From the IMG/VR virus record IMGVR_UViG_2695420699_000007: a stretch of 24,270 nucleotides of DNA. One strand, given 5' to 3'. The first letter of the stretch is position 1, and every line of letters starts with the position of its first letter. The DNA comes from a virus (lineage: Duplodnaviria > Heunggongvirae > Uroviricota > Caudoviricetes). Positions 18,001-21,000 of the stretch are shown piece after piece. A program made the position numbers.

Positions 18001-21000
18001 CAGCCTGGCGATATCCTGCTGTGCTGCTTTGGCGCATCGGTGGCCAATCATGCCGCCATATACTGCGGCAACGGTGAACTGCTTCACCATCTGCCTGAAC
18101 AACTGAGTAAACGGGAGAGGTATTCCGAAAAATGGCAACGATGAACGCATTCTGTCTGGCGTCACCGCCACTGGCACGCATCTGCCTTCACGGGGATTTA
18201 CAACGATTTGGCCGCCGCCTCAGCCTGTATGTGAACACGGCAGCGGAAGCCATCCGGGCGCTGTCGTTACAGGTGCCCGGATTCCGCCGTCAGATGAACG
18301 AAGGCTGGTACCAGATACGTATTCGCGGTGAGGACACGGCACCGGAGGCGGTGTACGCCCGTCTTCACGAACAGCTGGGTGAGGGAACGGTCATCCACAT
18401 TGTGCCGCGACTGGCCGGGGCCGGAAAGGGTGGACTGCAGATTGTGCTGGGGGCGGCAGCCATCGTGGGCTCTTTCTTCACTGCCGGGGCATCAATGGCG
18501 TTATGGGGTTCAGCCCTGGCAGCCGGTGGTTTTTCTGCCACCACGATGCTGTTTTCACTTGGAGCCAGCATGATTCTGGGCGGTGTGGCCCAGATGCTGG
18601 CCCCGAAGGCAAAAACACCGGATTACCGCGCAACGGATAACGGCAGACAGAACACATACTTTTCCTCGCTGGATAACATGATTGCCCAGGGGAACCCGAT
18701 GCCGGTGCCTTACGGGGAAATGCTGGTTGGCTCCCGCCGTATATCCCAGGACATCAGCACCCGTGATGAAGGCGGGGGCGGAACGGTCGTGGTTATCGGG
18801 CGGCAGGCATAAAAGCGAAAAAATCCCGCAGTGCTCACGGACAGGAACTGCGGGAGCGTTACGAAGATTAACCACAGGGAGTTTTGTTTTTATTGGCCCG
18901 AAAAAACTGTAACGCCCGGGAATGATATCTGCCACGGGGGCGTACAGAAAATGTGAAGAAATTCAGAAATTTTATTCCGTCATGACACAGGCACCCTCCG
19001 GGGTGCCTGTCGTTTTTGTGCGTAACAGTTATCACAGTAAAGGGTGAGACAATGGGCAAAGGTGGCGGCAAGGCGCACACGCCGGTTGAGGCAAAGGACA
19101 ATCTTAAGTCCACGCAGATGATGAGCGTGATTGACGCCATCGGTGAGGGACCGGTGGAAGGTCCGGTGAAGGGGCTGCAGAGTATTCTGGTGAACAAAAC
19201 CCCGCTGACGGACACGGACGGTAATCCTGTGATACATGGTGTGACAGCGGTCTGGCGCGCCGGGGAGCAGGAGCAGACACCGCCGGAAGGTTTTGAGTCA
19301 TCCGGCTCTGAAACCGCACTGGGCGTGGAAGTGATGAAGGCAAAGCCGGTGACGCGCACCATTACGTCCGCGAACATTGACCGCCTGCGGGTTACCTTCG
19401 GGGTGCAGTCACTGGTGCAGACCACCTCACAGGGTGACCGTAACCCGGCATCCGTCCGCCTGCTGATTCAGCTGCAGCGTAACGGTCGCTGGGTGACGGA
19501 AAAGGACATCACCATTAACGGCAAGACCACCTCACAGTTCCTTGCGTCGGTGATTCTGGATAACCTGCCTCCCCGCCCCTTTAACATCCGGATGGTCAGG
19601 GAGACGGCGGACAGCACCACAGACCAGCTGCAGAACAGAACGCTGTGGTCGTCATACACCGAAATCATCGATGTGAAGCAGTGCTACCCGAACACGGCCA
19701 TTGTGGGGCTACAGGTGGATGCGGAGCAGTTTGGCGGTCAGCAGATGACGGTGAACTACCATATCCGTGGTCGCATCATTCAGGTACCGTCAAACTATGA
19801 CCCGGAAAAACGCACGTACAGCGGTATCTGGGACGGCAGCCTGAAACCGGCATACAGCAACAACCCGGCCTGGTGCCTGTGGGACATGCTGACTCACCCG
19901 CGCTACGGCATGGGAAAACGTCTGGGGGCGGCAGACGTGGACAAATGGGCGCTGTATGCCATTGCGCAGTACTGCGACCAGACGGTCCCGGATGGTTTCG
20001 GGGGCACAGAGCCGCGGATGACCTTTAATGCGTACCTGTCACAACAGCGTAAGGCGTGGGACGTTCTCAGTGATTTCTGCTCGGCGATGCGCTGTATGCC
20101 GGTATGGAACGGCCAGACGCTGACGTTCGTTCAGGACCGCCCGTCGGATGTGGTGTGGCCGTACACCAACTGCGATGTGGTGGTGGATGATAACGGCGTG
20201 GGGTTTCGCTACAGCTTCAGCGCCCTGAAGGACCGCCACACGGCGGTGGAGGTGAATTACACCGACCCGCAGAACGGCTGGCAGACCTCCACGGAACTGG
20301 TGGAAGACCCGGAAGCCATACTGCGCTACGGGCGCAACCTGCTGAAGATGGATGCGTTCGGTTGCACCAGTCGCGGTCAGGCCCACCGTGCCGGGCTGTG
20401 GGTGATAAAGACCGGACTGCTGGAAACGCAGACGGTGGATTTCACGCTCGGGTCACAGGGGCTGCGTCACACACCCGGTGACATTATTGAAATCTGTGAT
20501 AACGACTATGCCGGGACCATGACCGGCGGACGTATCCTGTCCATCGATGCCGCCAGCCGCACCCTGACACTGGACCGTGAGGTGACCCTGCCGGAGACAG
20601 GTGCCGCCACGGTGAACCTGATTAACGGCAGCGGTAAGCCGGTGAGCGTGGCCATCACTGCACACCCCGCGCCGGACCGGATACAGGTCAGCACCCTGCC
20701 TGATGGTGTGGAGACATACGGTGTATGGGGACTCTCCCTGCCGTCACTGCGTCGTCGCCTGTTCCGCTGTGTTTCCATCCGGGAAAACACGGACGGCACC
20801 TTTGCCATCACGGCGGTGCAGCACGTACCGGAAAAAGAAGCCATCGTGGATAACGGGGCCAGCTTTGAGCCGCAGTCAGGCACCCTGAACAGCGTTATTC
20901 CACCGGCAGTGCAGCACCTGACGGTGGAGGTGAGCGCGGCTGACGGTCAGTATCTGGCACAGGCGAAATGGGACACGCCGCGGGTGGTGAAGGGTGTGCG

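Follow-up and report, generated by a model that had tools for sequence, protein, structure and literature searches.

The spacer between genes I and J of the tail operon of a lambda-like prophage is probably a compact antisense moron, i.e., a self-contained sRNA gene flanked by I and by the hairpin upstream of J. On the basis of its sequence, this gene is predicted to be a divergent member of the PasB family, and expression of this particular allele is likewise a prediction. The structured spacer described in an earlier note on the same DNA is real, yet it is largely accounted for by the already known PasB/EcOnc22-24 sRNA. The DNA examined, referred to below as the window, was the 24,270-nt IMG/VR record IMGVR_UViG_2695420699_000007 (Caudoviricetes).

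The I-J spacer of the window occupies 18813-19051 (239 bp), and a check of the sequence located all three hairpins of the earlier note (here hairpins 1-3, Table 1) at the coordinates it gave. Two other descriptions in that note had to be amended. Lambda I and J, which were said to be adjacent, are indeed separated by only a short gap (60 bp), but they do not abut and the gap contains its own hairpin and U-run. Moreover, the spacer was said to be free of ORFs, but a 41-codon plus-strand ORF starts at ATG 18922. This ATG is replaced by ATT in most alleles, and the ORF was rejected as a gene because its start codon is not conserved across alleles. A terminator scan of 18300-19600 revealed five terminator-like sites compared to 1.2 +/- 1.0 in shuffled sequences. 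Three of these sites were inside the spacer, including two overlapping calls on hairpin 1 and one on hairpin 3; hairpin 2 was not called. At gathering thresholds, no Rfam model, including AgvB (RF02702), AsxR (RF02703), Esr41 (RF02676) and STnc100, matched anywhere in the window, and a search of 18600-19250 in E-value mode gave only chance-level matches (E 0.15 to 3.2).

Table 1. Features of the I-J region, in window coordinates.
Feature	Position	Strand	Details and basis
Tail assembly gene I	18132..18812	+	ORF list; Pfam Lambda_tail_I, E = 2.4e-15; stop TAA 18810-18812
Predicted PasB/EcOnc22-family sRNA, maximal extent	18817..18915	-	Covariance model; homology to the E2348/69 PasB locus
Predicted intrinsic terminator of the sRNA (hairpin 1)	18818..18854	-	Stem 18854-18847 / 18832-18825, then A-U6 18824-18818
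Single-stranded core with the highest conservation in the sRNA body	18863..18871	-	UUAAUCUUC on the minus strand; 54-allele alignment
Downstream -10 candidate TACAGT	18906..18911	-	TAnnnT kept in all alleles, as read from alignments
Hairpin 2, allele-specific, GC-rich, imperfect	18907..18947		Overlaps the sRNA promoter region
Upstream promoter candidate	18922..18949	-	-10 TATCAT 18927-18922; -35 TTCTGT 18949-18944; spacer 16
Most conserved spacer block	18949..18979		Alignments; holds the CRP-like site
Hairpin 3, terminator-like, in the late transcript upstream of J	18987..19017	+	Stem 18987-19010; U5 19013-19017
Tail tip gene J	19052..22528	+	ATG 19052; ORF list; Pfam FNIII-A_GpJ

A predicted sRNA gene antisense to the late operon

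Hairpin 1 had been proposed as a minus-strand terminator, and both its structure and its conservation bear this out. Its 8-9 bp stem is formed by CCCGCAGT (18825-18832) and ACTGCGGG (18847-18854), with an MFE of -16.1 kcal/mol (z = -2.3), and is followed by a U-run at 18823-18818, which places the end of the terminator at a distance of 6 nt from the I stop codon (stop end 18812). The stem CCCGCAG/CUGCGGG was unchanged in 52 of 54 unique alleles, whereas the loops differed and were of at least seven kinds; we consider an invariant terminator stem with varied loops a sign of selection. Hairpin 1 also has the Hfq-binding module that serves as an sRNA criterion in RIL-seq, i.e., a Rho-independent terminator with a U-tract of at least 4 (here, U6). 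The RNA would end at this intrinsic terminator (18854-18825 plus U6), giving a predicted 3' end at approximately 18818.

The whole predicted RNA, terminator included, was recognized by a covariance model, which was built from 15 E2348/69-type and Sakai-type alleles with the allele types of the window left out. It matched 18915..18817 on the minus strand over its full length (54.1 bits, E = 4.5e-9). A blastn search with PasB alone found nothing in the window, the identity being 66% over the 83-nt RNA, which suggests that the window sRNA is a divergent member of the family. The predicted 5' end is at ~18915 if the upstream promoter candidate is used, or at ~18900 if it is equivalent to the mapped 5' end of PasB, a start-site ambiguity of ~15 nt. 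The 5' part of the sRNA would be single-stranded, A/U-rich and variable among alleles, with the conserved core coming next. Within this core, ATCTT was invariant across the 54 unique alleles and unpaired in predicted folds, and the core may represent the seed.

PasB (pathogenicity-associated sRNA B) is encoded by prophage PP6 of EPEC E2348/69 (Pearl Mizrahi et al. 2021, PMC8550237; Zhu, Shabalina and Storz 2026, bioRxiv 10.64898/2026.05.13.724894). It is an 83-nt, Hfq-dependent RNA which was observed on northern blots and has 37 RIL-seq partners; its log2FC in delta-hfq cells is -6.8, and its baseMean is 482-1082 versus 5-15 for I and J (PMC8550237; bioRxiv 10.64898/2026.05.13.724894). PasB corresponds to NC_011601.1 1466343..1466261 (minus strand), between E2348C_1436 (I) and E2348C_1437 (J). 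The window spacer could be aligned over its whole length with this PP6 I-J spacer, and the first 13 nt of the PasB northern probe AATCCCGCAGTG are identical to window positions 18822-18834.

A second group of relatives includes EcOnc22, EcOnc23 and EcOnc24, Hfq-CRAC peaks in EHEC O157:H7 Sakai prophages Sp15 (Stx1), Sp14 and Sp11, respectively (Tree et al. 2014, PMC4104026, Table S2). EcOnc22 migrates at ~85 nt on northern blots and is destabilised in delta-hfq cells (PMC4104026). Identical copies of EcOnc22 are present in Sp11, Sp14 and Sp15. In the old coordinates, the three peaks are 22-84 nt from the J starts. However, the AgvB Rfam match indicated a shift of +137 to +146 between versions 1 and 2 of the Sakai sequence, consistent at 2.24 and 2.92 Mb, and with this shift the peaks fall on the sRNA body and terminator loop. 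Taking the published coordinates at face value, which would place the peaks antisense to hairpin 3, was therefore ruled out. The equation of EcOnc22 with PasB thus relies on an inferred coordinate shift rather than on reads; in the papers that we examined, the EcOnc22-24 peaks are linked neither to PasB nor to the I-J junction. Among the explanations offered in the earlier note, a small antisense transcript was the right one, as homologues have been seen by northern blot, RIL-seq and Hfq-CRAC.

The sRNA would be made in the lysogen, when late genes are silent, as was shown for its homologues (~83-98 nt). It would act in trans, pairing with mRNAs of the host and of prophages with the help of Hfq, a role suggested by the Hfq dependence and RIL-seq chimeras of the homologues. 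An alternative, which we consider possible but unlikely, is that the minus-strand RNA acts mainly in cis. The I-J segment of the late transcript is the perfect complement of this RNA, the gene of which lies wholly inside the late operon on the opposite strand with the 3' end next to the I stop. All alleles, those of the sodC class described below among them, retain the antisense position. After induction, such pairing could expose the transcript to RNase III, whose cleavage would uncouple J from the tail genes before it; alternatively, the abundant late mRNA could titrate a lysogen-specific sRNA. However, the trans partners of PasB were recovered where I and J are almost silent, and the sRNA body varies between alleles in the manner of seed regions of trans-acting prophage sRNAs. 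A cis role could also run alongside the trans role.

Promoter region of the predicted sRNA gene

Transcription of the sRNA would start within 18906-18949, downstream of the conserved block with the CRP-like site. In E2348/69 and most other alleles, the position of the upstream promoter candidate is occupied by TTCACA-16-TATAAT (11/12). The window allele reaches 8/12 at best, using an overlapping -35 element TTTTCT with a spacer of 18, and no promoter passed in a scan of this allele. The upstream promoter thus appears to be degraded, and this allele could be weakly expressed or silent. In E2348/69, the consensus promoter predicts an RNA of 96-99 nt versus the 83 nt reported. The downstream -10 candidate, as judged from the alignments, would start the RNA at ~18900, which matches the mapped 5' end of PasB.

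The conserved block contains a candidate CRP-like site, TGTGA-N6-TCAGA (18952-18967), with a 9/10 core match to TGTGA-N6-TCACA. It is the sole match with no more than one mismatch in the window, where 0.84 such matches are expected by chance, and by itself it is not significant. CRP-dependent promoters have class I sites at -61.5 and class II sites at -41.5. The centre of the CRP-like site lies 32.5 bp before the -10 element of the upstream candidate, which corresponds to -44.5 relative to the upstream promoter (non-canonical) and to approximately -60.5 relative to the mapped PasB 5' end. We rejected the idea that this site serves a promoter on the plus strand, as no -10-like hexamer could be read at class I or class II spacing. 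PasB is more abundant in LB at 27 C compared to DMEM at 37 C (PMC8550237; bioRxiv 10.64898/2026.05.13.724894). This is only compatible with a role of CRP, and we regard the site as only a lead.

The promoter region overlaps hairpin 2, which the earlier note had interpreted as another minus-strand terminator. As a conserved feature, this interpretation was not supported: the U-run (U6 on the minus side, 18906-18901) is conserved and the hairpin is not. With MFEs of -15.0 (minus) and -15.7 (plus) kcal/mol and z scores of -1.7 and -2.0, respectively, it is only weakly better than shuffled sequences. In two allele groups, which differ in their pairing registers, the corresponding region folds at -14 kcal/mol, compared to -3 to -6 kcal/mol in a third. 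The E2348/69-type allele has an equally stable hairpin in a different register, and the hairpin is absent from the third large allele group. RNAalifold did not recover hairpin 2 across alleles, and on account of this and the differing registers it was rejected as a conserved structure. Hairpin 2 is an allele-specific fold of the promoter region and not a separate conserved element. The arrangement of a hairpin followed by a U-run occurs in two divergent allele groups.

A further possibility, less likely than a cis role, is that the sRNA gene of the window allele is decaying, the hairpin 2 segment having overwritten the promoter and left a spacer that consists of terminators or insulators only. 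The poor promoter match relative to most alleles and the negative promoter scan agree with this, as does the resemblance of hairpin 2 with its U6 to a minus-strand terminator directly upstream of the sRNA body. On the other hand, the expressed Sakai allele also has a poor -35 element (TTCCGG-17-AATAAT, read from the alignment), and the window allele has an intact TAnnnT -10 candidate, CRP-like block, body core and terminator. Decay is also at odds with the abundance of this allele type, which accounted for 31 of 184 sampled copies and was found in 330 E. coli records at 90-95% identity; O26:H11 11368 (1212648-1212882) is one of the strains that carry it.

A terminator-like hairpin upstream of J

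Hairpin 3 consists of a 10-bp stem with 7 GC pairs followed by CG-U5 (MFE -23.1 kcal/mol, z = -4.6). Across 15 alleles, 98% of cells were paired, one C-G to U-A compensatory pair was present, and the G.U wobbles were compatible with the plus strand only. This covariation and the strand-specific wobbles agree with the earlier description of a plus-strand hairpin with a U-run. In lambda and in the 342-bp allele class, this position is taken by hairpins of unrelated sequence. Considering its structure and conservation, hairpin 3 is a predicted plus-strand intrinsic terminator. It would belong to the sense late transcript, where it may stop non-Q-modified RNA polymerase in the lysogen and be read through after induction.

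It is very improbable that these structures form a cis-acting leader of the late mRNA that controls translation or stability of J. Such a leader would fit the conservation of hairpin 3 on the plus strand and its location 41 nt upstream of the J start. However, because of this distance the hairpin does not overlap the putative ribosome-binding site AAGGGTGAG (19040-19048, just before ATG 19052), and it is clear of the ATG as well. In addition, the unrelated hairpins in lambda and in another class are more readily explained by a generic terminator or stabiliser than by a specific switch, and the structures have no Rfam match. Control of J translation had been suggested in the earlier note, and we found nothing that points to it.

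The antisense sRNA gene and its flanking hairpins could be combined in a more elaborate scheme, to which we assign a low probability. The spacer would be a carbon-status switch between the lysogenic and lytic states, in which a CRP-activated Hfq sRNA, its 5' targeting sequence swapped from one prophage allele to another, regulates host genes in the lysogen and, upon induction, is neutralised by the perfectly complementary I-J transcript or cleaves it, with hairpins 2 and 3 acting as opposing insulators that separate the two transcription programmes.

Distribution of the I-J spacer and its significance

Of 5426 complete E. coli genomes, 1884 (about a third) contain related spacers, all unannotated and often with several copies in one genome. 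Most of these belong to EHEC/EPEC-type prophages, Stx phages among them. The I-J regions of related prophages fall into three size classes of approximately 240, 342 and 850 bp. When genome contigs were searched with the I protein, only 12 loci were detected, and the close ones look like contaminant contigs. That the junction is an insertion hot spot with three size classes could be taken to indicate a functionless scar of an excised insertion, another suggestion of the earlier note, but this is hardly credible for a widespread module which has a candidate promoter of its own, a conserved upstream block and a terminator, shares its site with antisense sodC, and has abundant Hfq-bound RNAs as homologues, whose expression already contradicts it.

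The antisense sRNA gene does not represent a new kind of system. It is, however, very common yet absent from Rfam and RefSeq annotation, and the present work links PasB and EcOnc22-24, two RNAs that had been named independently, at the conserved I-J junction, a precise phage landmark which is also the site of the sodC moron. BLAST with PasB misses divergent alleles such as that of the window, suggesting that BLAST-based surveys under-count the family. The analysis also supplies testable features, namely a pair of candidate start sites, a possible CRP site and the conserved core, which is likely the seed.

Comparison with known systems

The window sRNA gene resembles PasB in its I-J spacer locus and in its strand, which is antisense to the late operon. 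Both have the terminator stem, a U-tract that comes within 6 nt of the I stop, the core (UUAAUCUUC/UUGAUCUUC) and, upstream, the conserved block. They differ in the 5' body, which in the window is replaced (CGGGCCAAUAA... in place of GCCCGAGUAAC...), in the promoter segment, which is also replaced (-10 TATCAT in the window versus TATAAT in PasB), and in the length of the terminator loop (14 nt in the window versus 11 nt). EcOnc22-24, Hfq-CRAC peaks with an Hfq-dependent northern band of ~85 nt, are likewise located on the antisense strand of I-J spacers, in three prophages, but they show only ~68% identity to the window RNA, and their published coordinates refer to an older Sakai record and need a shift of ~+137 nt.

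AgvB, AsxR, PasA and PasC resemble the predicted window sRNA as short Hfq-binding sRNAs of lambdoid prophages that are convergent or antisense to phage operons, combine a conserved terminator at the 3' side with a variable 5' part, and are expressed in lysogens. However, they are located downstream of PR', next to the lysis genes (Q/PR'/lysis), and not in the tail operon, and have no sequence or Rfam relation to the window sRNA; AgvB and AsxR models match nothing in the window. Identity with AgvB or AsxR was rejected because these sRNAs occupy the PR' moron site.

In lambda, the I-J gap (NC_001416 15445-15504) contains a GC-rich plus-strand hairpin and a U-rich run before the J ribosome-binding site. 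This hairpin is positionally equivalent to hairpin 3, but its stem sequence is unrelated, and the ~170-bp antisense sRNA module that separates the hairpin from the I stop in the window is missing from lambda. The sodC morons of O157-type prophages differ from the window spacer in carrying an ~850-bp protein-coding cargo and in being without the conserved block, the upstream promoter and hairpin 3. EcOnc35 was rejected as a homologue of the sodC class, as it is located in the lysis region of Sp4 and not in the tail region. Like the window sRNA gene, the sodC morons are antisense at the I-J junction, and a PasB-like body and terminator are present 3' of sodC.

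A predicted PasB-like sRNA in the I-J spacer

The window corresponds to the late region of a lambda-like prophage: besides I and J, it includes a tape-measure gene, a K-like JAB/NlpC gene and an Ail/Lom gene. Between the end of I (18812) and the start of J (19052) lies a spacer of 239 bp, and all three hairpins described there in the earlier note were found in the sequence (Table). An Rfam search identified no family matching the spacer or its hairpins.

PasB is an 83-nt Hfq-dependent sRNA of EPEC E2348/69 located between E2348C_1436 and E2348C_1437 (NC_011601.1, 1466343..1466261, minus strand; PMC8550237). 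In prophage PP6 these genes are I (end 1466255) and J (start 1466496); PasB is thus encoded within the I-J spacer on the strand opposite the late operon, and 6 nt separate its 3' end from the stop codon of I. Zhu et al. (bioRxiv 10.64898/2026.05.13.724894) also described PasB as embedded in a phage structural-gene operon. Its Hfq dependence is strong (log2FC -6.8; PMC8550237), it has 37 RIL-seq partners, and its baseMean was 482-1082 versus 5-15 for I and J, which were nearly silent. The window and PP6 spacers aligned end to end, and the PasB northern probe begins with 13 nt that are identical to window 18822-18834.

EcOnc22, EcOnc23 and EcOnc24 are homologous Hfq-CRAC peaks in EHEC O157:H7 Sakai prophages Sp15 (Stx1), Sp14 and Sp11, for which northern blotting showed an Hfq-dependent band of ~85 nt (Tree et al. 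2014, PMC4104026); a later review gave their targets as unknown. At the published coordinates in the current Sakai record, the peaks fall 22-84 nt from J start codons, all three on the strand opposite the late genes. The Table S2 coordinates of that study refer to an older record than NC_002695.2. The position of AgvB1 is 137-146 nt higher in the current record, an offset that also suits EcOnc51 at 2.24 Mb and EcOnc42 at 2.92 Mb; without it, EcOnc42 would fall upstream of its own sRNA. Given this offset (~+137 to +146 nt across 1.94-2.92 Mb), the published Sakai sRNA coordinates taken at face value indicate the wrong features. After a shift of +137 nt, the EcOnc22 peak lies over UGCCUGAAAAAUAACUCCAUAACGUUAAUCUUCAUCGUUCUCUCCCGCAGCUCCGCUAACU, which in the PasB-equivalent RNA makes up the body and the terminator loop, and we therefore conclude, from coordinates rather than reads, that EcOnc22-24 and PasB are a single family. 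In Sakai Sp12 (locus L006), two tandem sRNA-like units with terminators were observed at 452-536 and 619-686 (2237451-2237535 and 2237618-2237685); the first is a PasA homologue, and the shifted EcOnc51 coordinates fit the second.

The window RNA (18900..18818) showed only 66% identity with PasB and 68% with the Sakai RNA, and blastn with PasB as query gave no match in the window. A covariance model built from 15 E2348/69-type and Sakai-type alleles, with the window's own allele types excluded, matched 18915..18817 (minus strand) over its full length (54.1 bits, E = 4.5e-9). This match indicates that the spacer element is a new, divergent member, predicted by homology, of the known but unannotated PasB/EcOnc22-24 sRNA family. 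Among the explanations offered previously, a small antisense transcript thus proved correct for hairpin 1, which PasB homology and the model match place as the terminator of the predicted sRNA; control of J translation and the scar of an excised insertion gained no support.

Features of the window, with sRNA elements from the alignment of 54 unique alleles (minus strand, read from the J side)
Feature	Window position	Description
CRP-like site	18952-18967	TCTGA-N6-TCACA, 9/10 CRP core match, in near-invariant A/T-rich block
Predicted promoter		TTCACA-16-TATAAT, 11/12, in E2348/69 and most alleles
Downstream of promoter		GCGUUA motif, TAnnnT (possible second weak -10), U-run
5' body		After U-run; variable between alleles
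Conserved core		UUAAUCUUC, after 5' body
Hairpin 1	18825-18832/18847-18854	Stem, then A-U6 on minus strand; MFE -16.1 kcal/mol, z = -2.3
Hairpin 2	18907-18947	Imperfect, U6 on minus side; MFE ~-15 kcal/mol, z = -1.7 to -2.0
Hairpin 3	18987-19010	10-bp stem, then U5, plus strand; MFE -23.1 kcal/mol, z = -4.6
Weak family-model match	2361-2466 (-)	18.8 bits, E = 0.04
ORF downstream of Ail/Lom gene	23508-24248 (-)	246 codons; no Pfam match

Anatomy and start site of the predicted sRNA

The CRP-like site is the only one of its kind in the window, where ~1 is expected by chance, and is a lead only. The promoter of the window allele is degraded (TTCTGT-16-TATCAT, 8/12 at best), and a promoter scan of this allele gave no match at the sRNA promoter. 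The conserved core is likely the seed of the sRNA, judging from the alignment. The terminator stem CCCGCAG/CUGCGGG was constant in 52 of 54 alleles, whereas at least seven loop variants occurred.

In E2348/69, initiation from the consensus promoter would give an RNA of 96-99 nt versus the reported 83 nt, whereas the weaker -10 further downstream agrees with the mapped PasB 5' end and would place the CRP-like site near -60.5. There are therefore two start candidates, window 18915 or ~18900. If transcription started near 18915, 5' GCGUUAC (18909-18915) could pair with GUAACGC (18855-18861, minus strand), which directly precedes the terminator, so that the conserved core would be enclosed. The predicted fold contains this helix of 7-8 bp; because it occurs in some alleles only, it is not a family feature.

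Hairpins 2 and 3

Hairpin 2 overlies the sRNA promoter segment. The E2348/69-type allele folds at this position (-14 kcal/mol) with different pairing partners, a third large allele group has no stable fold there (-3 to -6 kcal/mol), and RNAalifold across alleles detected no consensus helix at hairpin 2. A stable hairpin directly preceded the U-run in ~55% of sampled copies. We therefore regard hairpin 2 as an unexplained feature of particular alleles rather than a conserved terminator.

Hairpin 3, in contrast to hairpin 2, is conserved in its pairing across homologous spacers: in an alignment of 15 alleles, 98% of cells are paired, six alleles have U-A in place of C-G at one pair, and the changes from A-U to G-U and from C-G to U-G are compatible with pairing on the plus strand only. 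It may stop RNA polymerase that lacks Q modification.

Distribution and spacer classes

Phage records with related spacers numbered 149, most of them from Stx-converting phages; among complete E. coli genomes, 1884 of 5426 had such spacers (6180 places, none annotated). Near-identical E. coli prophage tail sequence also occurred on short contigs (L009, L011, L018) of assemblies labeled Streptomyces flavalbus, Parendozoicomonas haliclonae and a Clostridiales MAG, probably representing contamination.

Spacers of related prophages fall into size classes of ~240, ~342 and ~850 bp. The ~850-bp class contains an antisense Cu/Zn superoxide dismutase gene (sodC; Pfam Sod_Cu, E = 3.9e-32), and nothing but the PasB-like body and terminator has been retained, adjoining I. 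Such loci include L023 (1882-2732), L022, L018, L035, L054-L056, L065, L067, L069, L074 and L026; sodC has its own hairpin, and the breakpoint is immediately upstream of a TAATGT motif. In the 342-bp class (L029, 1882-2223), the most frequent in IMG/VR, hairpin 3 is replaced by unrelated sequence with a highly stable hairpin CCCCGGTATC..GATACCGGGG (-32 kcal/mol) flanked by U-rich runs on both sides. A 60-codon plus-strand ORF crosses this hairpin segment and ends at the J start, and L083 (295 bp) lacks exactly the ~47-bp segment.

Comparison with other prophage loci

The weak family-model match lies in an AT-rich gap upstream of ORFs at 2595-3334, which we take to be lysis genes. On the minus strand it shows the stem ACUGCYG/CGGCAGU, with U7 after it, and the motif UAAUCUUC; it has no Rfam match. 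PasA/PasC/EcOnc51-52-type sRNAs occupy a comparable position in other prophages.

The earlier note called I and J adjacent in lambda (NC_001416, L223); strictly, they are separated by a 60-bp gap (L223 146-205; lambda 15445-15504). On its sense strand this gap has a GC-rich hairpin of its own, unrelated to hairpin 3, and then UUUUGUCAUUU. Since the 342-bp class has yet another hairpin before J, a plus-strand terminator-like hairpin at this place is a positional constant of these phages, and the sRNA module is, compared with lambda, additional DNA in the window spacer.
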